Assembly: GCA_037138355.1 (NCBI GenBank)
Contig: JBAXIL010000003.1
Location: 13,065 to 77,064 of the forward strand
Source of the DNA: a bacterium
GTDB taxonomy: Bacteria > Oederibacteriota > PGYV01 > Palsa-1178
Length of the DNA stretch: 64,000 bases
Reading direction: 5' to 3'
Below are positions 15,785 to 49,150 of the stretch, in pieces (the first letter of the stretch is position 1; each line of letters begins with the position of its first letter). The notes beneath the pieces are model-generated. The model searched no databases and had not been told where the DNA came from. It saw only the letters and a program-made list of their open reading frames with translations. Both the position numbers and the translations under genes were made by a program.

Positions 15785-15829
15785 GTCTTTCTCCCCGATC
15801 GATTATATTAATAATAAAATAACAATTTT

Positions 15830-16723: not shown

Positions 16724-16754
16724 AAAAATCCTCCTGTTTTATTAACATTAGAAA

Positions 16755-17204: not shown

Positions 17205-17250
17205 TTTGTATCTCCTTTATTTAGTCATATATAATATTTAGGCAGTCCTA

Positions 17251-17283
17251 AGTATATAATACATTATTATTTTGTCAAGACAA
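17251..17283 (-). promoter_or_regulatory. Sigma70-like promoter of MarR-efflux operon 1 (minus strand: TTGACA-16nt-TATACT). An imperfect palindrome TTGTC-aa-GACAA overlaps the -35.
   Basis: Minus-strand reading gives cTTGACAaaataataatgtattaTATACTtagg. The plus strand reads ttgtcaagacaa, which is an IR with 5-bp arms. Confidence 0.4.
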
Positions 17284-17300
17284 TATTGATAGGGGAAAAT

Positions 17301-17334
17301 AAAAAAGCGCGGTTTCCCGCGCTTTTTTATTTTA
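17301..17334. terminator. Bidirectional intrinsic terminator separating efflux operon 2 (upstream on minus strand) from the MarR operon 1 promoter.
   Basis: AAAAAAGCGCGG-TTTC-CCGCGCTTTTTTATTTT: perfect 6-bp GC stem, with an A-tract and a T-tract flanking. Confidence 0.75.
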
Positions 17335-17344
17335 GCATTTTTTA

Positions 17345-20455: not shown

Positions 20456-20513
20456 ACCAATCTCCTTATTATTAGCTTGAAACCGCGATGCTTAAATATT
20501 GCCGCAACGCCGC

Positions 20514-21443: not shown

Positions 21444-21463
21444 TTTTTTGCCTCCAAATTATT

Positions 21464-22900: not shown

Positions 22901-23481
22901 TAGTATAATATTTTCCAGGCAAAGCCTGTTTTAATAATCTGTAATTCTCCATAAGACACATTTAGATTTGAATAAGTTGGTCTTTCAATCCTGAGTGACA
23001 AAACTGATGTGTCATTCACATTCCAATTAAGCCCAAATCCAAAATTATAATAATCAGCAAGCCAAGTATTATCTCTATCACCGTTATATCCAGGAATTAT
23101 TTCATACTGACTATGTCTATTAGCAAATGCCCTACCATACTCAAAACATATATCAGGGTAAACTAATAAATTTGGACATATATTAACCCTGATACCTGCA
23201 AAGACAGGATAAAAAGTATAATATTCCTGAGAATTGCTCCTATCGACAAAAAACTGAAAACCTGCTCCAGCATATAGGTCCACCCACTTCGCAATAGTGC
23301 CACCTAACTTAGCATCAAAGACCGCCGTATCATAAGAACCAGTACTATTATTTTCCAGAGTACGCGGCGTAATTAATGATGCGTAGGAAACTCCAAACTC
23401 ACTGAAAATAATTTTTTCAGCCATAAGTGGACTCAAAACTGTTAAAAACATAAACAAAACTAAAATTAATATTTTTTTCAT
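22900..23481 (-). CDS. Small outer-membrane beta-barrel-like protein (193 aa) embedded in efflux operon 2.
   Basis: Signal peptide MKKILILVLFMFLTVLSPLMA. Alternating aromatic/Gly beta-strands. Terminal aromatic (…AWKILY). Stop overlaps the start of the TolC-like gene (22900). Confidence 0.5.
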   Translation of the reverse strand: MKKILILVLFMFLTVLSPLMAEKIIFSEFGVSYASLITPRTLENNSTGSYDTAVFDAKLGGTIAKWVDLYAGAGFQFFVDRSNSQEYYTFYPVFAGIRVNICPNLLVYPDICFEYGRAFANRHSQYEIIPGYNGDRDNTWLADYYNFGFGLNWNVNDTSVLSLRIERPTYSNLNVSYGELQIIKTGFAWKILY

Positions 23482-23483
23482 TT

Positions 23484-23921
23484 TTACTCCCTTTCCATTT
23501 TCTTCTGAATTTTCTTCAGTATATTTAATGCCTGCTTTTTCTCCTGATTCGACAAAACCCCTAAAATCTCAACAAACTGTTTTTTCTTTGTTTCTATATG
23601 ACTGCAGACCATTTGCTCCACATTTTTAGTCACATGTACCCACACCGTGCGCCTATCCGACTCATTATGTTCCCTTTTTAATACACCAAAAGAAACAAGT
23701 TTATTGACTGTTTCTGTCATAGACGGTAATTTGACTCCAGCATGTTTTGCCAAATCACTCATTTTTACTTTTTTATGCTTATAAAGATAAGCCATAAGAT
23801 CAAGCTGGGACAAGGTAAGATCTTTTACGCCACTTTTCATAAAGTGCGTATTTTTTTGATTTCTCATAAAACCTGATAATGTTTCAATACATTCTGTAAT
23901 TTGTTTCATCGTTTCTTCCAT
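23484..23921 (-). CDS. MarR family transcriptional regulator (heads efflux operon 2).
   Basis: MarR wHTH with wing (REHNESDRRTVWVHVTKNVEQ). 145 aa. Confidence 0.85.
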   Translation of the reverse strand: MEETMKQITECIETLSGFMRNQKNTHFMKSGVKDLTLSQLDLMAYLYKHKKVKMSDLAKHAGVKLPSMTETVNKLVSFGVLKREHNESDRRTVWVHVTKNVEQMVCSHIETKKKQFVEILGVLSNQEKKQALNILKKIQKKMERE

Positions 23922-24466: not shown

Positions 24467-26089
24467 TTACATATTATCTTTTACTATTTTTTTCTTAACT
24501 CCACTTGATGCCAATATCACATGATAAGCAGATAAGGCTGGCATTTCTAAAGTGAATGTATTATTAATTATTTTGTCTATATCCTGTCTCCGTGTTATTT
24601 TAGCCTGACTTAACTTATCAAAGCCATAAGCCTTTCCTGTTTGATATATTTGGTCCGATTTGATTACAATTCTAACCATTGTTGTATTTATTAAATCTTT
24701 ATTTATGATTATGATATGAAGATTTGTTTCGTCGTTACCTTCTATTGAAGCATAAGTTGTTATTTTTGCTACATCAGAAGTATCTGCTTTTATATTTGTA
24801 TCACCATACTTGCCGCTATTTCCGTCATAATTTCTGTATAATCTAAAACCTGCCAAAGTATATGCTCCAAGTTCTGCCATCCAATAATTAGCCATATACA
24901 CTCCATATTTACCAAATATTCCCAATACATCTGCCTCTGCAATACCGCCCGATGGATGATAACCTGCTCCATATTCATATTCCGTAAAAGCAAGCTTGGT
25001 TCCTGGATAATATTTATCAATCATTTCATTTAGCTTTGGAATTAAGCGTATAGGACAATGTCCTGACGCGCATATCCAACTTGTTTCAATATAATTTGGA
25101 TCCCATAAAGACCTCGGGGCTTGAACTCTCGCCTCTGCTGTTTCTTCCGCCACACCTGCGGCCTGTGTGAATACTATTCTTTTTCCATTGGTTGAAGCTT
25201 CTGGATACCAGTGAACATCAAGCGCATCCAGCAAACGCATTCCTTTTGCTTTTGAGGCTTCATTTAACTTTTCTAAATAATACGCCAGATACCAACCGTA
25301 AACATAATAAGGTTTAATGTAATCAGGAGCATCCTGAAAAGTTCTGAATCCATTAAAACCATATGAGGCTGGTCCGTAGATTTCGGCGCTTGGATCTATT
25401 TTTTTCACAGCGCTTGCCGCATCAATAGAAAGCTGAACATACTCTTGTGCCCCAACTTTATTTTGGTGCAACCTTGGATGTGTGGTGGACCAAATATCAG
25501 GTTCATTATCAAGTGAATAACCCTTAACACCTGTTGACGTATCTGCTTTTCCGTATTTATTCACCAGAAAATTTACTTCTTCATCTACATAAACAAACCC
25601 ATCATTTTTATCAGGTTCTAATGATAATTCTTTTCCTTTAGTAAATATTACTTTTGCCCATCTGTCAGATGGTGCTATTTCTTTTACTCCAACAGGTCCA
25701 TTCTTATCTTTTGACACATAACCAGCAAGAGGTAGAGTTATTATAGAATACGCATTTAATGTAAGTGATTTATCGTGAAATGTAGTCAATACAGCACCAG
25801 CTTTATCTTGATCACCTGTCACATTTGCCCAATCTGCCAAATAATTATCAGAAGATTGCTGCCAATCACTACCAGCATTTGAAGCATTATTTTCCCAATT
25901 GTAACCAGTCATTCTATTACCACCTAAACGCCTCGCCGTGTAATTTGTATCCCTCGCAATATCTTGATTGACACCGTATATATAAGGAGAGATTTTTGTT
26001 CTGTCTTTTGATGTATCAATTGTTACATCAACAGCAAAAAGCAATGAAGCATTCAGAAATAATAGTAAGCCAGTCAGTATCCTTTTCAC
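24467..26089 (-). CDS. Secreted glycoside hydrolase, clan GH-A TIM-barrel. Family uncertain, possibly GH44-like.
   Basis: Signal peptide. RLGGNRMTGYNWENNASNAG block. NEP acid/base motif (YSLDNEPDIW) and a TEYE-type nucleophile motif (LAFTEYEYG), as in clan GH-A retaining glycosidases. Confidence 0.55.
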   Translation of the reverse strand: MKRILTGLLLFLNASLLFAVDVTIDTSKDRTKISPYIYGVNQDIARDTNYTARRLGGNRMTGYNWENNASNAGSDWQQSSDNYLADWANVTGDQDKAGAVLTTFHDKSLTLNAYSIITLPLAGYVSKDKNGPVGVKEIAPSDRWAKVIFTKGKELSLEPDKNDGFVYVDEEVNFLVNKYGKADTSTGVKGYSLDNEPDIWSTTHPRLHQNKVGAQEYVQLSIDAASAVKKIDPSAEIYGPASYGFNGFRTFQDAPDYIKPYYVYGWYLAYYLEKLNEASKAKGMRLLDALDVHWYPEASTNGKRIVFTQAAGVAEETAEARVQAPRSLWDPNYIETSWICASGHCPIRLIPKLNEMIDKYYPGTKLAFTEYEYGAGYHPSGGIAEADVLGIFGKYGVYMANYWMAELGAYTLAGFRLYRNYDGNSGKYGDTNIKADTSDVAKITTYASIEGNDETNLHIIIINKDLINTTMVRIVIKSDQIYQTGKAYGFDKLSQAKITRRQDIDKIINNTFTLEMPALSAYHVILASSGVKKKIVKDNM

Positions 26090-28061: not shown

Positions 28062-28502
28062 GTGAAAAAGCATAAAAACATGAAATCACAGGTGAGTAGT
28101 TCTCGTCGCATTATAGGTTTAATAAGAGATGCCCATGCCCTTCTCCGTAGTCGCTTTATGTCAAAAGCGCAGAATATGGGTTATAGTATGCCACAATTCA
28201 TGGTAATGTATGAATTAACTTCAGCCGGTGATATGACAATGCACGAACTTAATGGAAGACTGAAGCTTCCTAAATCCACAGTTTCAAGAATAGTTGACCA
28301 GCTCGTGGACAAAAAAATGTTAAAACGAATTAGGCCTGAAAATAACCGTCGAGTAGTTATGTTAAAAGCCACTCCAAGTTATATAAAGGGAAAAATGGCT
28401 ATTAGGAATCTTGTGGTTGAAGATATAGATAAAGTATTAAGCCACAGCAAAGCAAAGATATTATTACAAGCTCTCGAAGAACTTGTAGAATCAATCAAAT
28501 AA
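28062..28502 (+). CDS. MarR family transcriptional regulator (GTG start) heading the EmrAB-type operon.
   Basis: MarR wHTH (LPKSTVSRIVDQLVDKKMLKRIRPENNRRVVMLKATP). AGGAG RBS 6 nt before GTG. Confidence 0.8.
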   Translation: MKKHKNMKSQVSSSRRIIGLIRDAHALLRSRFMSKAQNMGYSMPQFMVMYELTSAGDMTMHELNGRLKLPKSTVSRIVDQLVDKKMLKRIRPENNRRVVMLKATPSYIKGKMAIRNLVVEDIDKVLSHSKAKILLQALEELVESIK

Positions 28503-28535
28503 CTAATTTTAATATAACATCAATGAGGTGAACAA

Positions 28536-29402
28536 ATGACTGAGAAAAACTTGCAACATCACGAAACGATCCATGAACCAAAAGTAGCTAAGCAACCATG
28601 GTGGAAAAACAAAAGGACAATAATAACTGCCCAAATTATGGGAGCTTTATTTGTAGCCATTTTTGTATTTTGGTTTATTTATTTAATGCCTTTTGTTTCA
28701 ACCGACGATGCCAGAATTGATGCCGATACAATAAAAATTGCCAATCTCGGTACTACTGGGCAAATTATAAAAGTTTTTGTAAAAGAAGGCGACAAAGTTG
28801 AAGCCGGTACCATACTGGCAGAGCTTGACCACGCCTCAGCAGAAGCCCAACTTTCAAGAGTGCAAGCTGCGTCACATTTTGCTAAAATTGACTTAAAAAG
28901 AACAAAAGCCATTGCTTCACAACAAGGTTTAAGCCAACAATCTGTGGATAAAACCATTCAAATGAATACCATAACACAAGCAGACTTAAAGCTTGCAGAA
29001 ATAGCGCTTGATAGAACTTACATAAAAAGTCCTGTTTCCGGTATAGTTGTTCAAAAGTCAGCTCAAGAAGGCAATATTCTTGAAAGCAATCAAACTGCAT
29101 TTATGGTAGCAGACATAGAACATGCAAGTATTTCAGCAAACATACTTGAAAAATCAGTTGGGGTTGTAAAAAATGGACAAGTGGTTTTTATTAAAATAGA
29201 TGAAGGTGGTAAATTAAAAGGTAAAGTTGTAGATGTACGCAGAGCAGCTGCTTCTGTTTTTGCTTTGATTCCATCTGATAATGCTTCTGGTAATTTTGTA
29301 AAAGTTGAACAACGCATCCCTATCAAAATAGAACTTGAACCAAACCATACAAAAAACTTAAGAGTTGGACAGTCCGTTGAAATTAAAATAAAAGTAAGAT
29401 AG
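28536..29402 (+). CDS. EmrA-like membrane fusion protein (HlyD family secretion protein) for an MFS pump.
   Basis: Single N-terminal TM. Biotinyl/lipoyl-like GDKVEAGTILAELD motif. YIKSPVSGIV beta-barrel motif. 288 aa. Confidence 0.85.
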   Translation: MTEKNLQHHETIHEPKVAKQPWWKNKRTIITAQIMGALFVAIFVFWFIYLMPFVSTDDARIDADTIKIANLGTTGQIIKVFVKEGDKVEAGTILAELDHASAEAQLSRVQAASHFAKIDLKRTKAIASQQGLSQQSVDKTIQMNTITQADLKLAEIALDRTYIKSPVSGIVVQKSAQEGNILESNQTAFMVADIEHASISANILEKSVGVVKNGQVVFIKIDEGGKLKGKVVDVRRAAASVFALIPSDNASGNFVKVEQRIPIKIELEPNHTKNLRVGQSVEIKIKVR

Positions 29403-29438
29403 TTTTTTTTACTTATGCAAAAAAATAAAAGGTGAATA

Positions 29439-31034
29439 ATGGATCGTAATCTACACGAAACTTTTCCTCCTGGCTATAAATGGAAAGTACTGGCCATTAT
29501 AATGATAGGCACAATGATGGCGACCCTTGACTCATCCATCGTAAATGTTTCTATCCCAGCAATCATGTCAGATTTTGGATCAAACTTAGAAGACATAGAA
29601 TGGATTATGACTGGTTATATGCTCGCTTTTGCAGCGCTTATGCCATTAACGGGTTGGCTCAGAGAAAGAATTGGTTACAAAAATATTCTAATCAGTTCTC
29701 TTATTTTATTTACTGTGGGTTCCCTATTGTGCGGTATGGCATGGAATCTTCCATCTCTCATTACAGCCAGAATCTTACAGGCTATAGGCGGTGGTGCCAT
29801 AATGCCCACTGGTATGGCTATGCTTTTTGAAGTTTTTCCACTTAAAGAAAGAGGAAAAGCCATGGGTTTTTGGGGCATGGGCATTATAGTTGGTCCTGCG
29901 ATAGGACCTACTCTCGGAGGTTATCTAACACACTCTTTCGGCTGGCGTTCTATATTTCTTGTCAACCTTCCTATAGGAATAATTGCTGTTATGATGGCAG
30001 CTGAAATGTTATTAAAAGATAATCTTCTTTCCAAAATAAAAAAATCATTTGATTTTTGGGGTTTTGCTTTTCTTACAATATTTCTTGTATCGTTTCTTTT
30101 AGGCATGTCAAAAGGCGAAAAAGAAGGTTGGCTATCTGTTTTTATTATTTCATGTTTTATATTAGCCATAACCAGTTTTGTTGGATTTATGCTTGTAGAA
30201 CTGCATTTAAAAGAAGGTCACGGAATTGTTGATTTATCACTTTTCAAATCCCCTGTATTTTCCATAGCGGCAATAATAGCTGTTGTCAGATCTATAGGTT
30301 TATTTGGGGGTGTATTTTTAATTCCTTTATTTTTGCAACAGCAAATGGGCTACAATGAATTGCAAAGTGGACTTATTATGCTTCCAAGTTCCCTACTTAT
30401 GGCCTTTGTCCTTCCTTTTGTAGGCCGTATGGCAGACAAAGTTGGGCCAAAAATACCTTCACTTATTGGTTTAGTCCTCATGGCATATAGTTTAATTGTC
30501 TATAAAACCATTGATGTCAATACCAGCCTATGGGATTTAATAAATCCTATGTTAATCAGAAGTTTTGGTATGGCTCTTTTAATGGCTCCTATTACTACAG
30601 CTGCCATGAATTCCGTGCCTTCAAGAAAAGCAGGTATGGCATCTTCACTAATGAATATTATACAGCAAGTAGGTGGATCTATAGGTATTGCCTTTTTCGC
30701 TACTGCTCTTTCCAACCGCGCACATTATCATATAAGCATAGTAAGCGAATCAGCAAAAAGTACTAACCCTGCTTTTATAGAAGCAGCTTCAAAAATAATG
30801 CAACATGTACACACCATGGGATTTTCATATTCACAATCCATGACTGCAGCAAAAATCGCCATTGTAAAAACAATGACAAAAGCCGCTATGGTCATGTCAT
30901 TTCAAGATGCTTTTATTATAGGCGGTATTATCGTTGCCTTAGCCATACCTATGGCAATTTTTCTTCCAAGCAAGGCCGTTCACCATGTTCATGGAGAATC
31001 AAAAGAAGGCGGGAGAGCAATTATAATAGATTGA
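29439..31034 (+). CDS. DHA2-family major facilitator superfamily drug:H+ antiporter (EmrB/QacA-like, 14 TM).
   Basis: MFS motif A (GWLRERIGYKNIL), motif C (GPAIGPTLGGYL), 14 predicted TM segments. 531 aa. Confidence 0.9.
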   Translation: MDRNLHETFPPGYKWKVLAIIMIGTMMATLDSSIVNVSIPAIMSDFGSNLEDIEWIMTGYMLAFAALMPLTGWLRERIGYKNILISSLILFTVGSLLCGMAWNLPSLITARILQAIGGGAIMPTGMAMLFEVFPLKERGKAMGFWGMGIIVGPAIGPTLGGYLTHSFGWRSIFLVNLPIGIIAVMMAAEMLLKDNLLSKIKKSFDFWGFAFLTIFLVSFLLGMSKGEKEGWLSVFIISCFILAITSFVGFMLVELHLKEGHGIVDLSLFKSPVFSIAAIIAVVRSIGLFGGVFLIPLFLQQQMGYNELQSGLIMLPSSLLMAFVLPFVGRMADKVGPKIPSLIGLVLMAYSLIVYKTIDVNTSLWDLINPMLIRSFGMALLMAPITTAAMNSVPSRKAGMASSLMNIIQQVGGSIGIAFFATALSNRAHYHISIVSESAKSTNPAFIEAASKIMQHVHTMGFSYSQSMTAAKIAIVKTMTKAAMVMSFQDAFIIGGIIVALAIPMAIFLPSKAVHHVHGESKEGGRAIIID

Positions 31035-32605: not shown

Positions 32606-32821
32606 TTACTTTGCTGCAACTGGTGTTACTACTACTGTTGCTACTACTGCTGCTTTTGCTTTCTTTGCTTTTCTTACTTTTTTTACTTTTACTACTTTAG
32701 CTGTTTCTGTTGTTGATACTGGTACCACTGCTGTTGTTACTGCTGCTACTTTTGTTTCTGCTGCAAATACCATTGTTGAAGCTAATGCCAATGCCATAAC
32801 GATTACTACGAACTTTTTCAT
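32606..32821 (-). CDS. Small secreted cationic protein (71 aa precursor), A/V/T-rich with a central lysine cluster. Paralog of 32874..33089.
   Basis: Sec signal MKKFVVIVMALALASTMVFA/AE. Mature region is ...KVVKVKKVRKAKKAKAAVV... Consensus AGGAGG RBS 6 nt upstream. Confidence 0.6.
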   Translation of the reverse strand: MKKFVVIVMALALASTMVFAAETKVAAVTTAVVPVSTTETAKVVKVKKVRKAKKAKAAVVATVVVTPVAAK

Positions 32822-32873: not shown

Positions 32874-33089
32874 TTACTGTGCTACTGTCGTTGCTACTTT
32901 GTGCAAAGCTGCTTTCTTTTTGTGATGATTTCTTTTTTTACTCTTTGTTTTCTTTACTTTTACTGGAGCAGTGACTACAGCAGTTGTTGAATCTACTCCT
33001 GCAGTATTCTCAACTGGTTTGCTCTCCGCAGCAAAAATCATTGTAGTTGCAAACGCAAACGCTAAAACTAAAATAAATACTTTTTTCAT
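32874..33089 (-). CDS. Small secreted cationic protein, paralog. Start reassigned to MKKVFIL... at 33089.
   Basis: Sec signal MKKVFILVLAFAFATTMIFA/AE. Lysine/His cluster KVKKTKSKKRNHHKKK. AAGGAGG RBS lies inside the track's MKEDF extension, 6 nt before the second ATG. Confidence 0.6.
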   Translation of the reverse strand: MKKVFILVLAFAFATTMIFAAESKPVENTAGVDSTTAVVTAPVKVKKTKSKKRNHHKKKAALHKVATTVAQ

Positions 33090-33172
33090 AAAATCCTCCT
33101 TCATTTTTTTTAATATAAAAATATAATAAATGTAATTATCAAGATAGAGGGGGAAAATAAAACAGGGGATGT

Positions 33173-33538
33173 TTATTTACGGGTTCTAATTATAGTAAGA
33201 TTTACCTTTGTTTTATAAATAGCATCTGTATTTACACTTGAATATGCAGGTGCAGTTTCATATTTAAAATCAGTTCTGTGAATAAACGTATTATTTTCAA
33301 ATCCAAACTTATTATTTTCTTCAGCTGTAAACGATACAATACTCCTGGAATTAGTTGAATGTCTATGATTATGTTTCTTATGTATTGCTTGTTTGAATCC
33401 AGAATTTGTAATAGTTTCTTGTGAAATGCCAGTCAAAATATCTGTTTTATGATATTGATTAACTATTTCAGGTTGTATTTGTGCATATGCAACTGTAATA
33501 ATTGCAAGCAAAATTGCTATTATCATTGCTTTTTTCAC
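33173..33538 (-). CDS. Small secreted hypothetical protein (121 aa, GTG start).
   Basis: Sec signal (V/M)KKAMIIAILLAIITVAYA/Q. AGGAGG RBS 6 nt before GTG. No family recognised. Confidence 0.5.
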   Translation of the reverse strand: MKKAMIIAILLAIITVAYAQIQPEIVNQYHKTDILTGISQETITNSGFKQAIHKKHNHRHSTNSRSIVSFTAEENNKFGFENNTFIHRTDFKYETAPAYSSVNTDAIYKTKVNLTIIRTRK

Positions 33539-33786: not shown

Positions 33787-33815
33787 TTGACATACCCATT
33801 AATCCTTGTTAGAAT
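33787..33815 (+). promoter_or_regulatory. Near-consensus sigma70 promoter for the lipoprotein-UbiA-kinase operon (TTGACA-17nt-TAGAAT).
   Basis: TTGACA at 33787..33792. 17-nt spacer. TAGAAT at 33810..33815. About 37 nt upstream of the TTG start with GGAGGA RBS. Confidence 0.5.
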
Positions 33816-33852
33816 AATTTGATTTTACAACATAATTTCATGGAGGAAAATT

Positions 33853-34476
33853 TTGAAAAAAACTACTTTTTTGAGCTTATTTGGTGTATTGTTGCTATCT
33901 TCCCTATTCTTAATCTCAGGTTGTGGTACAGATGTAAAAAGAGCAAGAAAAGATGCAGCTCTATTAAATAGCTTTGAAACATTACAATCTGAACTCTCCA
34001 TAGGTGACTTTAACTTAGACACAAACGGATATGTTAATTTAGAACAAATAAAGAAATATGCTTCGCAAGGTAAGTTCTCAGCTAAAGCGGTTTTTTCCGT
34101 ACCTGTAGATTTTCTCACTACAACACAGGCTGCTAAAGCCAAAACATGGATTTCTTCCTTATCTATGGGTATTAATACTCTTACAAAACTAAAAACAACG
34201 GATTGGCAATATTATAAGAAATTTTCTATTGATATATATGTAGCCGATCCGACAGCACCAGATATTTTCATAAAGTTAGTAGATATGTACGGAAATGAGT
34301 ATTTAACACAAAGAGTTCTTAAAAACGGAAGAAACAAACTTGAGATAATTTTAGAAGATGTAAAAAATTCCAGAGTAAGTATATCTGCAATTACATCATT
34401 TTCAATATATATGGATACAATAAACCAACCAAAAGATATCACACTTTATCTTGATAATATAAGATTGGTTTTATAA
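33853..34476 (+). CDS. Hypothetical lipoprotein (207 aa, TTG start).
   Basis: Lipobox LFLISGC following an n/h-region. GGAGGA RBS. A 5-nt gap to the next gene suggests co-transcription. Confidence 0.55.
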   Translation: MKKTTFLSLFGVLLLSSLFLISGCGTDVKRARKDAALLNSFETLQSELSIGDFNLDTNGYVNLEQIKKYASQGKFSAKAVFSVPVDFLTTTQAAKAKTWISSLSMGINTLTKLKTTDWQYYKKFSIDIYVADPTAPDIFIKLVDMYGNEYLTQRVLKNGRNKLEIILEDVKNSRVSISAITSFSIYMDTINQPKDITLYLDNIRLVL

Positions 34477-34481
34477 GTTTT

Positions 34482-35351
34482 ATGAAATCAATCGGTGTAC
34501 TTTTTGACCTACTCAGGGTTAAACAGTGGACAAAAAATCTTTTAATTTACGCCGCCCTTGTTTTTACCAGCAATCTTTTTAATCCTATTTATTTTCGCAG
34601 TGTTACTATAGGATTTTTTCTTCTTTGTTTTGCGGCAAGCTCTCTTTATATCTTTAACGACTTAGCTGATTACGAATCAGACCGACTTCACCCCCAAAAG
34701 AGAAATAGACCTATTGCCTCAAATAAAGTTAATAAAATTTTTGCGTTGAGCTTAGCCATTCTTTTAATGTCATTTTCCTTAATTGGTGCTTATTTTCTTA
34801 ACTTTAGTTTTTTCATCCTAATTATATGCTATCTCACTATGACTACACTTTATACTTTATTTTTAAAACATATTGTTATAGTTGATGTCTTCATATTATC
34901 TATAGGTTTCGTTTTAAGAGCGATTGCAGGTGCCCTTGTGTTATCTGTTTCCATATCACCTTGGTTATTAATTTGTACCCTTTTATTGGCACTCTTTTTG
35001 GCTTTAGCAAAAAGAAGAAACGAACTCACCATACCAGATGCTCACAAACACAGAAAAATTTTAGAAGAATACTCCATACCACTTTTGGATGAAATGATAT
35101 CAGTAGTTACAGCTTCTACAGTTATTGCCTATTCGCTTTATACCTTTTATTCTCCAACAGCAGTCAAACATAGCTATCTTATGCTAACCATACCTTTTGT
35201 ATTATACGGAATTTTCAGATATTTGTATTTAATACACAAAAAAAATATGGGCGGAAGTCCTGAAGCAATTCTTCTTAAAGATTTACCAATAATGATAAAT
35301 GTAATTCTTTTTGTCTTGACCACAATAATAATTGTTTATTTTGTTAAATGA
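34482..35351 (+). CDS. UbiA-family prenyltransferase, most similar in motif to decaprenyl-phosphate phosphoribosyltransferase (DPPR synthase) class.
   Basis: About 8 TM helices. First Asp-rich motif NDLADYESDRLHPQKRNRPIASNKV (cf. NDxxDxExDRxHPxKRxRPIAxG of DPPR synthases). Second DxxxD-like region later. 289 aa. Confidence 0.75.
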   Translation: MKSIGVLFDLLRVKQWTKNLLIYAALVFTSNLFNPIYFRSVTIGFFLLCFAASSLYIFNDLADYESDRLHPQKRNRPIASNKVNKIFALSLAILLMSFSLIGAYFLNFSFFILIICYLTMTTLYTLFLKHIVIVDVFILSIGFVLRAIAGALVLSVSISPWLLICTLLLALFLALAKRRNELTIPDAHKHRKILEEYSIPLLDEMISVVTASTVIAYSLYTFYSPTAVKHSYLMLTIPFVLYGIFRYLYLIHKKNMGGSPEAILLKDLPIMINVILFVLTTIIIVYFVK

Positions 35352-36286
35352 TTCTTGCAGTTACTTTAAACTCCACCATAGACATTGTAATCCCTGTAAA
35401 TAATCTAAAACCTGGCTCTGTTTCTCGAACTAAAGCCATATACACCTACCCCGGTGGTAAAGCAACTAATGTTGCCCGCGCCTTAAAACAACTCGGTGCC
35501 ACTGCCCACGCTATTGGATTTGTAGGTATTAGGGATTCTCGCGAAACAGAACATTTTCTTAAACACCACGGCGTTACTTCGTCTTATATCCCATGTACTG
35601 GTTCAAATAGAATATGCCTTCTTTTAACCGAAACTAAGGATGTCCCGAGAGAAACGGTAATAAACAGCGAATCTGACATAGACATAACAAAAAAAGAAAT
35701 AGACATATTTTTACAACAACTTAAAACACTATCAATTAAAGCTTCACACATTATCTTTTCAGGCAGTTTACCCTTATCATTGCCATCAAACTTTTATGAA
35801 ACAGCCTTAAAAGTGGTAGATAAAAATTGTATCTCCATACTTGACACTTCGGCCAAATATCTATTTCATGGTATAAAAGCATCCCCTAAAATAATAAAAC
35901 AGAATCTAAGTGAGCTTGAATCAGCTTTTCATGTAAAACTAACAAATCCATCCAAAATTAAAAAATTTGTATCAGCACTTTCAATAAAATATAAGGTACC
36001 CATAATTATAGTAACTATGGATAAAAAGGGTTCGCTTGTGTTTGATAATGGAAGTTTTTATTTTTATCCAGCCATAAAAGTTAAAAAAATTATATCTCCT
36101 GTTGGTTCTGGTGATGCTTTTTCGGCAGGTTTAGTTTATGGATTATCAAAAGGATATAGCGTAAAAAACTCATGTAAATGGGCTGCCTCAGCTGCTTCTG
36201 CAAATTTGTCGCACTTGGGTTCGTGTTTTATTAGTAGGAAGAATGTATTAAAATATCTTGCCAATGCTAAAATTACTAATTATTGA
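35348..36286 (+). CDS. PfkB-family sugar kinase of the FruK/LacC (1-phosphofructokinase / tagatose-6-phosphate kinase) subfamily.
   Basis: N-terminal ILAVTLNSTIDIV...YPGGKATNVARAL. C-terminal anion hole PVGSGDAFSAGLVYG. ATGA overlap with the upstream gene indicates translational coupling. Confidence 0.78.
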   Translation: MILAVTLNSTIDIVIPVNNLKPGSVSRTKAIYTYPGGKATNVARALKQLGATAHAIGFVGIRDSRETEHFLKHHGVTSSYIPCTGSNRICLLLTETKDVPRETVINSESDIDITKKEIDIFLQQLKTLSIKASHIIFSGSLPLSLPSNFYETALKVVDKNCISILDTSAKYLFHGIKASPKIIKQNLSELESAFHVKLTNPSKIKKFVSALSIKYKVPIIIVTMDKKGSLVFDNGSFYFYPAIKVKKIISPVGSGDAFSAGLVYGLSKGYSVKNSCKWAASAASANLSHLGSCFISRKNVLKYLANAKITNY

Positions 36287-42949: not shown

Positions 42950-43510
42950 TTAAAATATTTTCAAATGCTCAATTAATATCTTAACACCTATTCCTATCAA
43001 AATCAACCCTCCAAGAATTTCAGCACGCCTACCAAACATTTGACCTACTTTTTTACCAATTGCCCCACCTAAAAGCGTAAATGCAAATGAAACCGATCCA
43101 ATTAAAACAACTGGTATTAACATATCATATTTCATTACAGAAAAACTTACACCCACTGCCAGTGCATCTATGCTCGTTGCAAAAGACAACCATATGAGTG
43201 CTTTTCCAGTAGTATAATCACTTTTTCCCTCACTGTTTTTTTCTAAACCCTCTTTTAACATTTTAGTTCCTATTAGTACAAGCAAACCAAAGGCAATCCA
43301 ATGATCAAAGTTTTTTATCAGTGCTATAAAACTATTTCCAGCCAACCACCCAAATAAAGTCATGAGTGACTGGAAAATACCAAATAATAAACCCATAGAT
43401 AAAAGATTATTTAACTTAAAACCCTTTCCCGTTGTGCCTGCTGATATTGCTACCGCAAAACAATCCATAGCAAGTCCAATTGAAATAAGAATCATTGTAA
43501 GTAAGTCCAT
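42950..43510 (-). CDS. mntP: Manganese efflux pump MntP (DUF204/LysE-like).
   Basis: MDLLTMILISIGLAMDCFAVAISAG... with the duplicated DxxAV(G) motif (SIDALAVGVSF). 6 TM. 186 aa. Confidence 0.85.
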   Translation of the reverse strand: MDLLTMILISIGLAMDCFAVAISAGTTGKGFKLNNLLSMGLLFGIFQSLMTLFGWLAGNSFIALIKNFDHWIAFGLLVLIGTKMLKEGLEKNSEGKSDYTTGKALIWLSFATSIDALAVGVSFSVMKYDMLIPVVLIGSVSFAFTLLGGAIGKKVGQMFGRRAEILGGLILIGIGVKILIEHLKIF

Positions 43511-43525
43511 TAATACCTCTCTTCA

Positions 43526-44479
43526 TTAATTGGCGAGTTTCACCGTCTTCGAAAGTTCGCCTAAATCATTTGTATTAAGCGAGCGTTTTCCGCTATCACG
43601 CTTTCTTGACATGCGTGATAAAAATGTCCCTGGCCCTATTTCTACAAATGTATTAACTGCATTTTTTAACATAGTTTCCAAACTTAAATCTATTCGTGAA
43701 GGTTTGAAAATATAATCAGTAAACTTCTCTTTGATTTCCTGTACATTATCATAATAATTTCCTGTTGTTTGGCAAATTATACGCTGCTTTGGTTTGTCCA
43801 TAGGTATTTTTTTAAAAACTTCCTTTAATCTATCTGCTATTGGCTTTAATATAGAAAAACAAGCCGACTCTTCATGTGGTATATTAATAACTGATCCGTT
43901 TAATTTTTTAAATAATTCAGTTAATTTATCCTTATCCTTAGTCTCACAAACTATAATGGTAGAATCTTTTCCATTGTATGATACTATTTCTGCCTTAACT
44001 GTGTTTTTCAACTCTGAGATAACCTTTTCAACCTGCATTACCTGCACAGTATTTATGAGCAAATGTTGAAAAAAACCTTTACCCACTTCATCACTAATCA
44101 TTTGTTTTTTAACAAAAAGAAAATCAATGGCATTATCAAAAGATATTGCTTCGGAACACACAAGAGCCATTAGCTCTCCAGCTTTATACCCAAACATTTG
44201 TTCAGGCATAACTTTGTAATCTTTTAAAATATCAAAAATACCTCTCTGATAAACAGCATTTATTATGATTCCATTTTCTTCAAGCATAAGCTCTTCCACA
44301 GGTCCTAAAAATGAGAGTTTATTTATCTTAAAATCACTATATTTTTTTTCTACTTTATCGTAGTACTGCCTCATAATCCAAGATGAATCATATGCTTTTT
44401 TGCCGAGGCTCACATACTGATATCCAGCGCCAGTAAACATATAACCTATAGCTGCCAAAATATACCTCCTAAAATGCAC
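43526..44479 (-). CDS. FabD-fold (malonyl-CoA:ACP transacylase-like) protein with a substituted active site: the GHSxG nucleophile elbow reads GYKAG.
   Basis: Colinear with FabD. FTGAGYQ vs FPGQGSQ. MFGYKAGELMALVCSEAISFDNAI vs MAGHSLGEYSALVCAGVIDFADAV. EIGPGTFLSRM vs EVGPGKVLTGL. Ser92-equivalent is Lys, Arg117-equivalent is Lys. Confidence 0.65.
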   Translation of the reverse strand: MHFRRYILAAIGYMFTGAGYQYVSLGKKAYDSSWIMRQYYDKVEKKYSDFKINKLSFLGPVEELMLEENGIIINAVYQRGIFDILKDYKVMPEQMFGYKAGELMALVCSEAISFDNAIDFLFVKKQMISDEVGKGFFQHLLINTVQVMQVEKVISELKNTVKAEIVSYNGKDSTIIVCETKDKDKLTELFKKLNGSVINIPHEESACFSILKPIADRLKEVFKKIPMDKPKQRIICQTTGNYYDNVQEIKEKFTDYIFKPSRIDLSLETMLKNAVNTFVEIGPGTFLSRMSRKRDSGKRSLNTNDLGELSKTVKLAN

Positions 44480-44482
44480 CTT

Positions 44483-45160
44483 CTATTTTTTAGTTATGAC
44501 TACCATTCCAAAATCACCTAAAGGAAGATTTATCTTTTCTAATACATCATCCGCAAATGGAAATAAATAACCAACCGTAATAGGCATATAAAGCGTATAT
44601 TTTACAGTATATTTATAACTGATATCCTTAACTCCCAAAGCTTCCTTTATTATGGTTGTTATTTCAGTCCCTGATAAAGGTGCCGAATCATTATAAACAG
44701 CCCTACGCTCTCTCACTTTAAATATTTTTGAAAGAGAGTTTTTATTCAGAAAACCTATTGCCACTTTTTTTGCTGCTACCCGAAAAGCTTCTTTTAAAGC
44801 GGCTTTTTTATCAAACGCAAATCCAAAAGTGTTCATAAATATAACATTATCAAAAGAACCGTTTCCAAGAGGCAATTTTTCATACGGACACCTAATAAGC
44901 TGTTCATTTTTTATAGTGGATTTCTGTCGAGCTTTTTTTATAAGTTCTTCAACTGGTTCTACTCCTACTGCTTCAAGACCTAAATCACACAAATATTCAA
45001 GGTTTCTTCCTGTGCCGCAGCCTATTTCTAATACACGCTCACTTCTTTTAAAACGAATACTATTAATAAGCAATTCTTTTTCTTTGTCATCTGTGTACAT
45101 CCCTGCAGGTGACAAAAACCATCTCTCATAATTTGAAACTATATCGCGTTCTACAACCAT
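44483..45160 (-). CDS. Class I SAM-dependent methyltransferase (Methyltransf_11/UbiE-like).
   Basis: VLEIGCGTGRNLEYL motif I. GSFDNVIFMNTF post-II. 225 aa. Confidence 0.8.
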   Translation of the reverse strand: MVVERDIVSNYERWFLSPAGMYTDDKEKELLINSIRFKRSERVLEIGCGTGRNLEYLCDLGLEAVGVEPVEELIKKARQKSTIKNEQLIRCPYEKLPLGNGSFDNVIFMNTFGFAFDKKAALKEAFRVAAKKVAIGFLNKNSLSKIFKVRERRAVYNDSAPLSGTEITTIIKEALGVKDISYKYTVKYTLYMPITVGYLFPFADDVLEKINLPLGDFGMVVITKK

Positions 45161-45174
45161 GTATTGTCTCCTGT

Positions 45175-46140
45175 CTATTTTGTTTCCTTAGCCCAGTTAA
45201 TAACATCTCTCAGTCCGTCTTTAAATTGTATCATTGGTTTCCATTTCAACAATTTGGCAGTTTTTGATATATCCGCTTGCATGTGCCTCTGATCGCCAGG
45301 CCGTGCAGTTTTATAAATTACTTTATTTGTTTTTCTGGTTTTTCCAAAACTTTTCAAAGTAATGTCTATTAATTGATTAACCGATACCCTTATACCAGAA
45401 CCTAAATTAAATACTTCATTAAAAGATTTTTTATTATCTATGGCACCAATCCAAGCTTTTGCAACATCACTAATGTGCACATAGTCACGAGATTGTAAAC
45501 CATCACCAAATACTGTAACTGCTTCACCACGCAGTACATTACCTATAAATATTGAAACAACTCCCTGATAAGGATTAGTCAGCGACTGTCTGCGCCCATA
45601 TACATTAAACATTCTAAAAGCAGTAGTATTTAATTTAAACCCCATATCTGTTCTTAAACCTGTGGCTAATACATATCTCTCGCCTGCATATTTTGTAATA
45701 CCATAATATGCAATCGGCCTGGTGCCCATTGTTTCTTTTACTGGTATAGCATCAGGTACTCCATACGAGGTCATGGAAGAAGCATATAATAACCTATTCA
45801 CTTTATACTTTATCGCATAATTAATAATATTTATAGTTCCCAAGACATTTGTATTGAGATCCGCTGCTGGGTCATCAAATGATTTAATTGTTGAAGCACA
45901 ACCAGCTATGTGAAAAATAGCATCTATTTTATTTTTAAATACTTTGTCCAAATCTTTTGGATTCCTAACATCTCCTTTGATAAAGAGAGCTTTGGAATTA
46001 ATATTTTCCTTAAGACCAGTGGAAAGATTATCAACTACAATAACCTTATAACCACTATCTAATAAAGCATCTGTCATATTTGAACCAATAAAACCCGCCC
46101 CACCTGTAACCAATACTGTTTTTTCCATGTTTGCCTCCAT
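45175..46140 (-). CDS. NAD-dependent nucleotide-sugar epimerase (GalE-like SDR; UDP-hexose or UDP-pentose 4-epimerase).
   Basis: VLVTGGAGFIGSN Rossmann. YxxxK (YGITKYAGE). 321 aa. Confidence 0.85.
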   Translation of the reverse strand: MEANMEKTVLVTGGAGFIGSNMTDALLDSGYKVIVVDNLSTGLKENINSKALFIKGDVRNPKDLDKVFKNKIDAIFHIAGCASTIKSFDDPAADLNTNVLGTINIINYAIKYKVNRLLYASSMTSYGVPDAIPVKETMGTRPIAYYGITKYAGERYVLATGLRTDMGFKLNTTAFRMFNVYGRRQSLTNPYQGVVSIFIGNVLRGEAVTVFGDGLQSRDYVHISDVAKAWIGAIDNKKSFNEVFNLGSGIRVSVNQLIDITLKSFGKTRKTNKVIYKTARPGDQRHMQADISKTAKLLKWKPMIQFKDGLRDVINWAKETK

Positions 46141-46160
46141 ATATTAGTAAATATATTAAC

Positions 46161-46859
46161 TCATAACTTAAGTTTTAACTTCCATACTATCCACGCGGCT
46201 TCTAAAATCACTTTTCTTGACATTTTGGAAGACCCTGAGTGGCGGTCAACAAATATTATTGGTATCTCTTTAATTTTGAATGATCTTTCCCATGCTTTAT
46301 AGTGCATTTCTATCTGAAAAGCATAACCATCAGAATGTATTTTATCGAGATCAATTGCTTTTAAAACACTACTTTTATAACACTTAAAACCACTTGTTAA
46401 ATCAGTAAGCGGAAGACCTGTTATTATTTTAGCATATAAGTTCGCAAGTTTTGAAAGCACAAGTCGCCTAAGCGGCCAGTTAACTACTGATAGTCCGTTG
46501 ATATACCTTGAACCTATTACCAAATCATTGGTTTTAAGTGTTTCTATAAAAACAGGTAGATAATTTGGATCATGAGAAAAATCAGCATCCATTTCAAATA
46601 TAATGTCATATTTTTTGGCTAAAGCATACTTAAATCCTTCAACATAAGCAGTTCCCAAACCGAGTTTTTTTGCTCTTTCTATGAGCTTTACTCTTTTATT
46701 TTTTTCCATTATTACTTTTACTGCTGCTCCAGTACCATCAGGAGATTTGTCATCCACAATAAGTATGTCAGCAGCAGGCAGAGTTTTCATTATCATTGGA
46801 ATAAGTTTTTTTATATTATCTTTTTCATTAAAAGTAGGTATTACTATAAGTATTCTCAT
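46161..46859 (-). CDS. GT2-family polyprenol-phosphate glycosyltransferase (Dpm1/ArnC/CsbB-like).
   Basis: ILIVIPTFNEKDNI. DDKSPDGTG. DxD (FEMDADFSHDP). 232 aa soluble GT-A domain, typical of Und-P-sugar synthases. Confidence 0.82.
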   Translation of the reverse strand: MRILIVIPTFNEKDNIKKLIPMIMKTLPAADILIVDDKSPDGTGAAVKVIMEKNKRVKLIERAKKLGLGTAYVEGFKYALAKKYDIIFEMDADFSHDPNYLPVFIETLKTNDLVIGSRYINGLSVVNWPLRRLVLSKLANLYAKIITGLPLTDLTSGFKCYKSSVLKAIDLDKIHSDGYAFQIEMHYKAWERSFKIKEIPIIFVDRHSGSSKMSRKVILEAAWIVWKLKLKL

Positions 46860-49150
46860 TTATCACCTTTATGTATTTTCCTTTCTCTAAAATATATTAT
46901 CACATAAAATAATATACCAATTAAGGTCAAAAGTAAACCTAAGTAAAACCCATCCTTTGAATAATAAAGTTCTATGTCATGCGTTCCGGTTTTTAAAGGT
47001 ATCCCCATAAAAGCATAATTTACATTATAAATTTTATTTAATTTATTATCAACTTTAGCTTTCCACTCAGGATAGTAAGAATTCTTTACCACCAACATTC
47101 CATCTTTTTCTGTTTCAACAATCATCTTAATCCTATTAGGAGTATATGATTGAATGCCTATCTTATATGATAAAAGATCTGGTGACGGCATCAAATCAAT
47201 GTCATCTTTTATCAAAACTCCCTTAAAATCATAAGTCCCACTTTTCATGTAATTTAATATCTCTTCATTTGTATTATACTTAAATATTTTATCAGTAAAA
47301 ACGATTCTTGGAGAAACAGCTTTGTTACTATAAACTTTAACCTTTCCATCTAACAACTTATATAAACCTGGTATATTTATGTCCTCAGACATTAAGAAAT
47401 ACTTAATATTAAAATAACTATCTGCAGCCAAAATATTGAAAAGTCCTGCTTTCTCAAGTGCTAAATATGATTTAGGTATTAAACCATGTATCCCTTTTAA
47501 CCCTTCTATATCATAGTATATATTTCTATTAGGCGACCAAGAGAACGAGAAATCTGTCATCCTATAGATATCTTTATCCTGCTTTATTGCTATGGCTACT
47601 GGATCAATAACGGGTACATAATTTTTGTATTCCTCATAAATAATAAATTTATTATCAATTCTATGCATATCCACAAAGTTAATAGATGCCAATATTATTG
47701 ATACGAGAAAAATATTCTTTATTTTTTTTGAAATAAAAGCATAAATAATAGCAAGACCAGCTGCTGACACAAAAATAAAATATACTACATCCTGTCTTAT
47801 GCCAGCTAATATATTTCCTAATATTTGCGGTGATATCTGTGTTTTCTTAATAGTCATATATAAGCTACTGACTATCTGTGTTAAGTTATTGCCAATAAAC
47901 ATTATAGATAAGGTAATAAATATAATTCCCATAATGACTGAAATACCAGTCAGAATCTTTAACATAGTATTTTTACTTGCCTGTCCAAAATTAAATATAT
48001 TATTAAGTCCTACTGCTGACAGTGCCATAATAAAAAAAGTAAATACATATAGGAACCGTGATGGATTTCTAAATTGATTAAAAACTGGAATATAATAAAA
48101 TAGCTTGTATATTGGAGTAAAACCACCAAACGAAAGAATAAGAAATAATATAGAGGAAAAAGTCAAAAACTTAGCAAAAGAAGAGAGTTTTTTATCTACA
48201 AAAGCAAAAGGAACAAGCAAAAATGAAATGATTCCAAAATAATAGGTGGTTAGATTAAACGGCATAAACCCATAATAGTTTTCTGCCCTTAAACCGAAAA
48301 ATCGCGGAAGAAAAAATGTCAGTGTTTCAATTGGGTGAAATGACCATGAAACAAAATCACTATAAGTAAAACTCCCTCTCCAAGAATAATCAGTATAAGG
48401 AATAGAAGGTATAAGCTGGAGGGACGCATATATAATAATAGCCAAGGTGCTCAACATAAACAATCCAATTGGTTTTATATAATTAATTTTATTTCTGGCT
48501 TCTATCCAAATTTTGTAAATAGCAAGCATAAGAACTCCCAGATATGTATAGGCCATGATCTGCATACCAGTTGCAAGTATTTGCAAAGCCATAAGCACTG
48601 CTGCATTTAAAAATGGAAGCATTTTTTTATTATCAAAACCCCTTGCTGTAAAATAAAATATAAATGGTATAAGTGCTCCTGCCTTAATATTATTCCAGTG
48701 ACCAACATAAATATACGAAAGCATGAATCCACTTATGGTGAAAGCAACAGCAGAGAAAAAAGCCGCCTCTCTTCTGATACTAAACTGTCTCAAAAATAAA
48801 AACATACCAAGAAATGAAACCAACAGATGAATTAATAGATCAATAGTGTAGGTAAACTGCAGGGGAATAGGTAAAAACATAAACAATAAATCAGTCGGGT
48901 AATAATATAAAAGACTTGAAGAGCCTATCAGTGGCATTCCAAAAAACAAATGTGGCATCCAAAGTGGCAAATCGTGATATTTTACAGCCATTTCCTGAGC
49001 AAATAATTTGAATGGTAAATAAATAGTAAAAAAATCAGTTCCAAATAATATTTTTCCTGGCTGAAGTGCCCCATTAAAAAAAATTAATCCTGTTATAAAA
49101 AGAAATAAACCAATTAACCAGTTTTGTATCTTCTTATTGTCCATCAGCAA
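46856..49150 (-). CDS. YfhO-family GT-C membrane glycosyltransferase (polytopic N-domain plus C-terminal extracytoplasmic domain and final TM).
   Basis: 764 aa, more than 12 TM. C-terminal signature ...NSYYPEWKAKVDNK...VNYAFMGIPLKTGTHDIELYY...LLLTLIGILFYVIIYF matches the YfhO family ending. ATGA overlap with the downstream GT2 and a 17-nt overlap with the upstream UXS-like gene. Confidence 0.72.
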   Translation of the reverse strand: MLMDNKKIQNWLIGLFLFITGLIFFNGALQPGKILFGTDFFTIYLPFKLFAQEMAVKYHDLPLWMPHLFFGMPLIGSSSLLYYYPTDLLFMFLPIPLQFTYTIDLLIHLLVSFLGMFLFLRQFSIRREAAFFSAVAFTISGFMLSYIYVGHWNNIKAGALIPFIFYFTARGFDNKKMLPFLNAAVLMALQILATGMQIMAYTYLGVLMLAIYKIWIEARNKINYIKPIGLFMLSTLAIIIYASLQLIPSIPYTDYSWRGSFTYSDFVSWSFHPIETLTFFLPRFFGLRAENYYGFMPFNLTTYYFGIISFLLVPFAFVDKKLSSFAKFLTFSSILFLILSFGGFTPIYKLFYYIPVFNQFRNPSRFLYVFTFFIMALSAVGLNNIFNFGQASKNTMLKILTGISVIMGIIFITLSIMFIGNNLTQIVSSLYMTIKKTQISPQILGNILAGIRQDVVYFIFVSAAGLAIIYAFISKKIKNIFLVSIILASINFVDMHRIDNKFIIYEEYKNYVPVIDPVAIAIKQDKDIYRMTDFSFSWSPNRNIYYDIEGLKGIHGLIPKSYLALEKAGLFNILAADSYFNIKYFLMSEDINIPGLYKLLDGKVKVYSNKAVSPRIVFTDKIFKYNTNEEILNYMKSGTYDFKGVLIKDDIDLMPSPDLLSYKIGIQSYTPNRIKMIVETEKDGMLVVKNSYYPEWKAKVDNKLNKIYNVNYAFMGIPLKTGTHDIELYYSKDGFYLGLLLTLIGILFYVIIYFRERKIHKGDK

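Follow-up and report, generated by a model that had tools for sequence, protein, structure and literature searches.

A predicted polyprenyl-phosphoribose synthase shares a lineage-specific operon with a lipoprotein and a PfkB-family kinase in Goldbacteria

Ribo-, arabino- and xylofuranose reach bacterial surfaces by pathways whose first enzymes are polyprenyl-phosphoribose synthases (PPPRS). These synthases serve as a drug target in tuberculosis, and in Gram-negatives they are a source of antigenic diversity. In a 64,000-nucleotide stretch of contig JBAXIL010000003.1 (assembly GCA_037138355.1, positions 13,065 to 77,064; hereafter the window), a UbiA-family membrane protein related to these enzymes lies between the genes of a lipoprotein and of a PfkB-family sugar kinase (Table 1), and the central question raised by this arrangement is what the substrate of the kinase may be. 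A preliminary description of the locus had proposed that a lipid-linked sugar donor is made here by a new route, with the kinase feeding the transferase instead of phosphoribosyl pyrophosphate (PRPP) synthetase. We give somewhat better than an even chance to another reading, taken as a whole: the three genes would form one operon, the transferase would use PRPP, the lipoprotein would resemble a carbohydrate-binding module (CBM), and the kinase would be coupled for co-regulation or supply. The PPPRS family with an intact PRPP site reaches here an uncultured cellulolytic candidate phylum, the Goldbacteria, in which its usual partners are swapped for a kinase and a CBM-like lipoprotein. There is nothing exceptional about the transferase itself, which databases already annotate; what alone sets the locus apart is its pairing with the kinase.

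The Asp-rich motif originally noted in the transferase, NDLADYESDRLHPQKRNRPIASNKV, is located at residues 59-83 of the 289-aa protein. Two observations could point to an aromatic prenyltransferase (for 4-hydroxybenzoate, 1,4-dihydroxy-2-naphthoate (DHNA)/MqnP, heme O synthase or digeranylgeranylglyceryl phosphate (DGGGP) synthase): in Pfam the protein matches only the generic UbiA family (PF01040, 93.5 bits), and the automatic JGI label of many of its homologues is ‘4-hydroxybenzoate polyprenyltransferase’. However, the NCBIfam model for decaprenyl-phosphate phosphoribosyltransferase (DPPR synthase; NF008977) gives 285.1 bits against a cutoff of 234, whereas those for 4-hydroxybenzoate, MqnP, heme O, chlorophyll and DGGGP synthase enzymes give 16-44 bits against cutoffs of 180-392. 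The sole PDB matches are two entries of Mycobacterium tuberculosis Rv3806c (8j8j and 8j8k, E=1.5e-36), aligned over 271 columns (residues 9-281 of our protein with 19-295). Together with the conserved phosphoribose site described below, the profile scores effectively refute an aromatic prenyltransferase, to which we leave a next to negligible chance. The initial preference for DPPR synthase over UbiA/MenA is thus borne out, and the curated profiles do not place the protein within the 4-hydroxybenzoate or DHNA prenyltransferases.

The PRPP and Mg2+ contacts described for Rv3806c (PMC10994848) were mapped by alignment onto the window transferase, where 12 of the 14 residues are identical. These include the ligands of the pyrophosphate (R22, K87, R90, Y138 and K143 of Rv3806c, corresponding to R12, K73, R76, Y124 and K129), of the 5'-phosphate (K28 and Y70, corresponding to K18 and Y56) and of Mg2+ and ribose (N73 and D77, corresponding to N59 and D63), as well as the contacts D74, D81 and K208. 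The two that differ are Q135, which contacts the ribose O3 and is replaced by Thr (Q, T, N or S across the family), and Y157, replaced by a Phe that is also present in some mycobacteria. Moreover, R12, K18, Y56, N59, D63, K73, R76, Y124 and K129 are invariant in a 14-member alignment covering Goldbacteria, Firmicutes, Aminicenantes, Armatimonadota and others. Because the phosphoribose-binding residues of Rv3806c are absent from classical UbiA enzymes (PMC10994848), their conservation is specific evidence for PRPP as the donor.

Judged from its sequence, the 289-aa protein is assigned to the PPPRS/DPPR synthase family and not to the quinone-pathway enzymes. It has in common with Rv3806c a similar length and span and the NDxxDxxxD motif, but the two proteins are only ~31% identical, and the host here is a diderm bacterium whose lipid is presumably undecaprenyl phosphate instead of decaprenyl phosphate. 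Furthermore, no Rv3807c-like phosphatase, DprE1/DprE2 or Emb/Aft GT-C glycosyltransferase adjoins the window transferase, whose partners are the lipoprotein and the PfkB kinase.

It had also been suggested that such a pathway would be new outside Actinobacteria. This does not hold, since a UbiA-like polyprenyl phosphoribose synthase involved in pentofuranose side chains on O antigens was demonstrated biochemically in Citrobacter, where it acts in concert with a 5'-phosphatase, a flippase and a GT-C glycosyltransferase, and the same study terms the pathway widespread and cites an earlier Pseudomonas pilin arabinosylation system (Kelly et al., PNAS 2024; PMC11127046). In our scan (one genome per species), the matches listed comprise more than 585 relatives of the transferase, in Paenibacillus, Brevibacillus, Herpetosiphon and other Chloroflexota, Acidobacteriota, Omnitrophota, Zixibacteria, Planctomycetota and more. 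NCBI already holds the exact sequences of the window transferase and kinase, the former under its family name. A lipid-linked pentofuranose donor pathway outside Actinobacteria is therefore already known.

The first enzyme of Citrobacter youngae O1/O2 (ORF15 PPPRS-PRP, with a MATE flippase and a GT136 GT-C) and of pilin arabinosylation in Pseudomonas aeruginosa PA7 is likewise a PRPP-using one in a non-actinobacterial envelope, but in the window no phosphatase domain or gene, flippase or GT-C is linked to the PPPRS. The published three-component scheme (PMC11127046) has no kinase, whereas the Goldbacteria PPPRS is translationally coupled to one of the PfkB family; and while the carbohydrate-binding module of Citrobacter is a domain of the GT-C, here it is possibly a separate lipoprotein.

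In the PPPRS loci of Paenibacillus, Thermincola, Aminicenantes, Acidobacteriota, Chloroflexota and others, the transferase is 44-53% identical to that of the window and all active-site residues are invariant, but its neighbours are different, with no PfkB kinase and no lipoprotein. A census of co-directional genes in 79 clustered non-Goldbacteria loci found DUF362 beside the transferase in 19, a GT4 glycosyltransferase in 15 (largest cluster), an NAD-dependent epimerase in 11, a small SMR/EamA-type transporter in nine, DUF6080 in eight and a HAD-IB phosphatase in six, and PMT_2 or GT87 GT-C enzymes are encoded nearby in Thermincola and Aminicenantes. These neighbours in other phyla match the published pentofuranose scheme (PMC11127046).

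DUF362 (PF04015), the commonest of these neighbours, often abuts the transferase (L012:7880-8956, L010:9165-10247, L080:10401-11492 and 16 further loci) and is absent from the published three-component scheme. As it belongs to the same Pfam clan as the N-terminal domain of the racemase/epimerase LarA (PMC11770544), it could have a so far overlooked function in lipid-linked pentose pathways, either as an epimerase or as an accessory enzyme. Thermincola has, immediately 3' of the transferase (L010:8015-9160), a gene for an ABC1/UbiB-family atypical kinase that is unrelated to PfkB; next come DUF362, an LPG_synthase_TM protein, an epimerase and a PMT_2 GT-C.

Concerning the kinase of the window, a 312-aa protein of the PfkB family (PF00294, 158.5 bits), its placement rests on curated profile scores and on a sharp gap in its matches. 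It falls just under the cutoff of the 1-phosphofructokinase hexose kinase subfamily (TIGR03168, 205.4 bits against 216.4) and well below those of FruK (TIGR03828, 195 against 292), LacC (115-123 against 409-469) and Pfk-2 (67.8 against 353), while its top PDB matches are LacC 2awd and FruK 2abq. In a large protein database, relatives with at least 45% identity come only from Goldbacteria-like assemblies, and beyond this clade match scores drop from 271 to 127 bits, to Firmicute FruK/LacC proteins of ~30% identity. An alignment of 17 clade members with 54 FruK/LacC-like proteins shows conservation in the clade of D12, R27, G36-G37-K38, N41, R88, S138-G-S-L-P142, D166, K184, N186, E189, G253, G255 and D256, with the GXGD (G253-S-G-D256) and NXXE (N186-L-S-E189) motifs invariant. 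Six glycines that are 83-100% conserved in the FruK/LacC outgroup (positions 61, 64, 110, 144, 169 and 225) are substituted.

Because all catalytic and nucleotide-binding positions are conserved, we predict an active kinase, probably acting on a phosphorylated furanose-type sugar and lying outside every characterised specificity group. It belongs to the same fold family as FruK, LacC and Pfk-2 and has every one of their catalytic and ATP motifs, but differs from them by an identity of only ~30%, its scores under every equivalog cutoff, its glycine substitutions and the lack of a fru, lac or PTS (phosphotransferase system) context; in particular, no fruA, fruR or PTS gene is present in any orthologous locus examined. 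The earlier FruK/LacC-type assignment stands, the kinase belonging to the FruK/LacC/Pfk-2 branch, but it is not a conventional FruK.

Two other kinase sequences deserve separate mention. The one at L019:3070-3939, 31.5% identical to the window kinase, has SGKG for GGKG and GAGD for GSGD, which indicates either a much faster evolution or a replacement of the kinase in that lineage. The second, P0141, is a 460-aa protein on a 2-kb contig in which an N-terminal DUF1295-like membrane domain precedes a member of the window kinase's clade lacking its first ~20 residues. This may be a genuine fusion, or else an artefact of assembly or gene calling. We rejected it as a UbiA-kinase fusion, as its N-terminus is not UbiA, and it gives no evidence either way.

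Could such a kinase make the activated donor for the transferase in place of PRPP synthetase, as first proposed? The operon is indeed conserved and translationally coupled in one phylum, and the kinase belongs to no characterised equivalog family. However, FruK, LacC and Pfk-2 add their phosphate to a primary hydroxyl, so that their products are 1,6-bisphosphates and not an anomeric diphosphate, and the proposal conflicts with this chemistry because the transferase needs an anomeric diphosphate as leaving group. The transferase also keeps the whole Lys/Arg cluster that binds the pyrophosphate and all Rv3806c residues that bind the 5'-phosphate of PRPP, and its orthologues in more than 70 loci of other phyla have no PfkB partner. 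We consider this model very improbable, and the data give no support to a lipid-linked sugar donor being made by a new route.

The kinase and the transferase are nevertheless encoded in what looks like a single operon. As previously noted, a consensus promoter precedes the lipoprotein gene; agreeing with the consensus at 11 of 12 positions, it is the top-scoring site of the region. The region, which is AT-rich, shows no overall excess of promoter-like sites (22 observed against 23.2 expected from shuffles), but each of the eight orthologous loci examined has TTGAC(A/G)-N17/18-TGTTAnAAT equally far from the start codon, and seven of them (all but L018) have a GGAGG with a non-ATG start (GTG/TTG), so that it is conservation, and not the consensus match alone, that makes these signals more than chance. 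The ATGA overlap of the transferase stop and kinase start (35348-35351) also proved correct: within AAATGA, the ATG lies at 35348 and the TGA at 35349-35351. No intrinsic terminator was detected 3' of the kinase, where a convergent cation-efflux gene ends 25 bp away. We predict that the promoter and the three genes make up one transcription unit, found only in Goldbacteria-like bacteria.

The named close relatives of the window proteins belong to Candidatus Goldiibacteriota (Goldbacteria), with a few labelled Spirochaetia. The order lipoprotein-UbiA-PfkB is present in eight Goldbacteria-like lineages (L005, L006, L008, L014, L016, L018, L019 and L020) in addition to the window genome, with identities down to 59% for the transferase and 31% for the kinase, and the 4-nt overlap is kept in all eight. 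The trio is intact in L016 and L017, where it is preceded by other genes (CheR, HD, YfiO), and in L019 the kinase still overlaps the stop of a transferase that is 63% identical to that of the window. The intact trio of L016/L017, the overlap kept in L019 and the conserved promoter favour selection on the three genes as a unit. The combination of a CBM-like lipoprotein, a PPPRS and a divergent FruK-like kinase is an undescribed, lineage-specific operon architecture, and our literature search for a pairing of DPPR synthase with PfkB found nothing.

In L016 and L017, which represent one Goldbacteria-like lineage, the operon has an additional gene that overlaps the kinase stop (L016:7942-9411, L017:2485-3954) and codes for a 489-aa protein of the N-acylglucosamine 2-epimerase (AGE) superfamily, similar to N-acylglucosamine 2-epimerase and cellobiose 2-epimerase but far under their equivalog cutoffs. 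A neighbour of this kind may suggest that the PfkB kinase takes part in sugar processing.

The 207-aa product of the first gene is a predicted lipoprotein. Its N-terminus MKKTTFLSLFGVLLLSSLFLISGCG has basic residues, a hydrophobic stretch and the lipobox L-I-S-G-C24 reported earlier, of which G23-C24, with the following G25, is invariant in 14 orthologues. The Pfam search gave no family match, and a hit to Rad10/ERCC1 was dismissed as noise (19.6 bits against a cutoff of 28.1). Close homologues were found only in the Goldbacteria-like clade, where they and the kinase clade always come as members of this trio. An AlphaFold2 model built from the 14 orthologues is an all-beta sandwich after the signal peptide, of low confidence (mean predicted local distance difference test score, pLDDT, 60), and a Foldseek search of the PDB with this model returned CBM-like domains of agarases, a mannanase CBM, CBM11 and CBM28 as weak matches (TM score ~0.43-0.46). 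Independent support came from a profile search of 1.8 billion representatives, which found the C-terminal ~90 residues (~115-206) as a module, often repeated, of large proteins that also have matches to GH123, heparinase II/III or Glyco_hydro_cc, or weak ones to Agarase_CBM (below cutoff) and SGBP-B. The best reading, put with reserve given the modelling, is that of a membrane-anchored extracytoplasmic domain resembling a carbohydrate-binding module. Its likeness to the CBM of the Citrobacter GT-C enzyme can be taken only as an analogy, and the earlier suggestion that it could be the periplasmic partner is an inference.

From these data a pathway can be proposed. At the cytoplasmic face of the membrane, the PPPRS would convert PRPP and polyprenyl phosphate into polyprenyl-phospho-ribose-5-phosphate and pyrophosphate, a predicted step that is well supported because of family membership (homology with Rv3806c and Citrobacter ORF15) and the conserved active site. 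The product would be a lipid-linked pentofuranose precursor for extracytoplasmic glycosylation of envelope glycans, and the later steps, namely 5'-dephosphorylation, optional epimerisation, flipping and GT-C transfer, would be encoded outside the operon. More tentatively, the lipoprotein would probably bind the acceptor or the product glycan on the extracytoplasmic side. The kinase would be a cytoplasmic sugar-phosphate kinase of FruK/LacC type, and not a substitute for PRPP synthetase, whose coupling would serve co-regulation or precursor supply, for instance from ketose phosphates towards the pentose-phosphate/PRPP pool. We regard co-regulation or supply as the most likely meaning of the coupling and a new activation chemistry as less likely. 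A possible step feeding the PRPP pool is the phosphorylation of sedoheptulose-7-phosphate or a fructose phosphate, like that of the phosphofructokinases of cellulolytic clostridia lacking transaldolase. The supplements of the Goldbacteria genome paper do not mention phosphofructokinase, transaldolase or prenyltransferase.

Several observations weigh against this proposal. A role of the kinase in co-regulation or supply is a default reading. The CBM-like assignment relies on the low-confidence model and weak fold matches given above. No phosphatase, flippase or GT-C is encoded within ~8 kb of the trio in the window, L006, L008, L014 and L016, and a PMT_2 GT-C lies ~3 kb upstream of it in L005. 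The sole GT-C of the window sits with its own GT2 donor synthase, and nothing ties it to a phosphoribose donor. To our knowledge, experiments on the family are limited to proteobacterial and actinobacterial members. In addition, the flanks of the trio (pyruvate kinase, small secreted proteins, a cation-efflux gene and NAD synthase) are also syntenic across Goldbacteria-like genomes, and a co-directional PfkB gene lies beside the UbiA homologue in none of 77 loci of other phyla, 65 of which include at least 1.2 kb of downstream sequence; the only PfkB-family match in these loci is weak and on the opposite strand (L054). Finally, the kinase fills the overlapped downstream slot that is held by a HAD phosphatase or DUF362 in other phyla, which hints at a more direct role.

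As for co-occurrence of the gene pair, the trio is kept within the Goldbacteria-like lineage and the pairing is absent from the 77 other loci. Because it is confined to one candidate phylum with strong general synteny, the pairing is only moderate evidence for functional coupling. The shared neighbourhood and the absence of the pairing elsewhere speak for a rival reading with no functional link at all, in which the kinase would be a housekeeping or catabolic ketose-phosphate kinase (a PfkB-type 6-phosphofructokinase, or the equivalent of FruK or LacC) that is adjacent to the transferase by inherited gene order. The kinase does keep all residues typical of fructose-1-phosphate, tagatose-6-phosphate and fructose-6-phosphate kinases, the AGE-family epimerase/isomerase gene overlapping it in L016/L017 suggests sugar catabolism, and Goldbacteria are reported to be cellulolytic with a complete glycolysis (PMC7031533). 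Yet the trio and its 4-nt overlap are intact where the upstream flank is rearranged (L016) and where the kinase is most diverged (L019), the kinase scores under the FruK, LacC and Pfk-2 equivalog cutoffs, and PTS/fru genes were not found nearby. We judge the absence of any link unlikely, if a possibility to be taken seriously, and rank co-regulation or supply only slightly above it. If the kinase were only a housekeeping enzyme, the locus would be a matter of routine annotation, and the result a correction: the pathway type is known, and the idea of a kinase replacing PRPP synthetase should be dropped.

At the other extreme, the kinase may act directly in the lipid-linked pentose pathway, on a substrate of ribofuranosyl-1-phosphate type. 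It might interconvert polyprenyl-phosphate-ribose and polyprenyl-phosphate-ribose-5-phosphate, and in reverse would replace the missing 5'-phosphatase and recover ATP; or it might convert free ribose-1-phosphate into ribose-1,5-bisphosphate, as a salvage towards PRPP. Ribofuranosyl-1-phosphates are close structural analogues of fructofuranose-1-phosphate. The operon encodes no phosphatase and has the kinase in the overlapped slot filled by HAD-IB or DUF362 elsewhere, the clade has its own substitutions of glycines conserved in FruK/LacC, and archaeal PfkB-family ribose-1-phosphate kinases exist. For E. coli FruK, the reverse reaction takes place at physiological concentrations (PMC11157272). 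However, the argument is one of pure analogy: the archaeal models match the window kinase weakly (NF041134 and NF053626, 42 and 26 bits against cutoffs of 500 and 330), and the phosphatase could be encoded elsewhere. PfkB kinases are moreover soluble, and we know of none that uses a lipid-linked sugar. Such a direct role seems to us quite improbable. We similarly hold out little hope for the fuller version, in which the kinase would be a true pathway enzyme on ribose-1-phosphate or polyprenyl-phosphoribose that replaces the 5'-phosphatase step, and the lipoprotein a separate acceptor-binding subunit. If true, it would amount to a new architecture for extracytoplasmic pentofuranosylation, with a kinase/phosphotransferase step in the place of the usual 5'-phosphatase.

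Table 1. Position and strand, in the window, of the operon, its expression signals and the second glycosylation cluster
Feature	Position	Strand	Remarks
Sigma-70-type promoter	33787..33815	+	TTGACA-17 nt-TAGAAT, extended -10 TG
Ribosome-binding site GGAGG	33842..33846	+	direct reading; 6 nt 5' of the lipoprotein TTG start
Lipoprotein gene	33853..34476	+	207 aa, TTG start
UbiA-family transferase gene (predicted PPPRS, DPPR synthase homologue)	34482..35351	+	289 aa, membrane protein
PfkB-family kinase gene	35348..36286	+	312 aa, FruK/LacC/Pfk-2 branch
Polyprenyl-phosphate-sugar glycosylation cluster (predicted)	42950..50075	-	
GT2, polyprenyl-phosphate hexose synthase-like (PpgS, PgfS, AglJ-like)	46161..46859	-	
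YfhO/PgfM-like GT-C	46856..49150	-	764 aa

The window is ordinary chromosome of a diderm bacterium with ~33% GC, coding for TolC/AcrB-type efflux, OmpA, a GH44 enzyme and housekeeping functions. The preliminary description had suggested that this organism has two separate lipid-carrier sugar systems, which we find reasonable. In addition to the GT2 and the GT-C, the second cluster encodes MntP, an acyltransferase-like protein, a methyltransferase and two NAD-dependent sugar epimerases/dehydratases, and its domain content is that predicted for a conventional polyprenyl-phosphate-sugar glycosylation module.

Divergent from the trio, on the reverse strand, are three genes for secreted proteins (32606..32821, 32874..33104 and 33173..33538), two of which code for tandem paralogues of ~71-76 aa rich in Lys, Ala, Val and Thr, and the third for a protein of 121 aa. 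L005, L006 and L007 have, at this position, arrays of similar ORFs of 67-122 aa that match no Pfam family. The nearby pyruvate kinase was considered as the mark of a glycolytic cluster, and this was rejected because it is on the opposite strand, has the secreted-protein genes in between and is absent from L016.

Farther upstream, the window contains three closely spaced efflux modules, each with a MarR-family regulator, at 12683..23921 (reverse strand) and 28062..31034 (forward strand). Two of these are AcrB-type resistance-nodulation-division pumps with HlyD-like adaptors, one of them with a TolC-like outer membrane efflux protein, and the third is a major facilitator superfamily (EmrB-like) pump with an HlyD-like adaptor. 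The GH44 glycoside hydrolase is encoded between the efflux modules, at 24467..26089.

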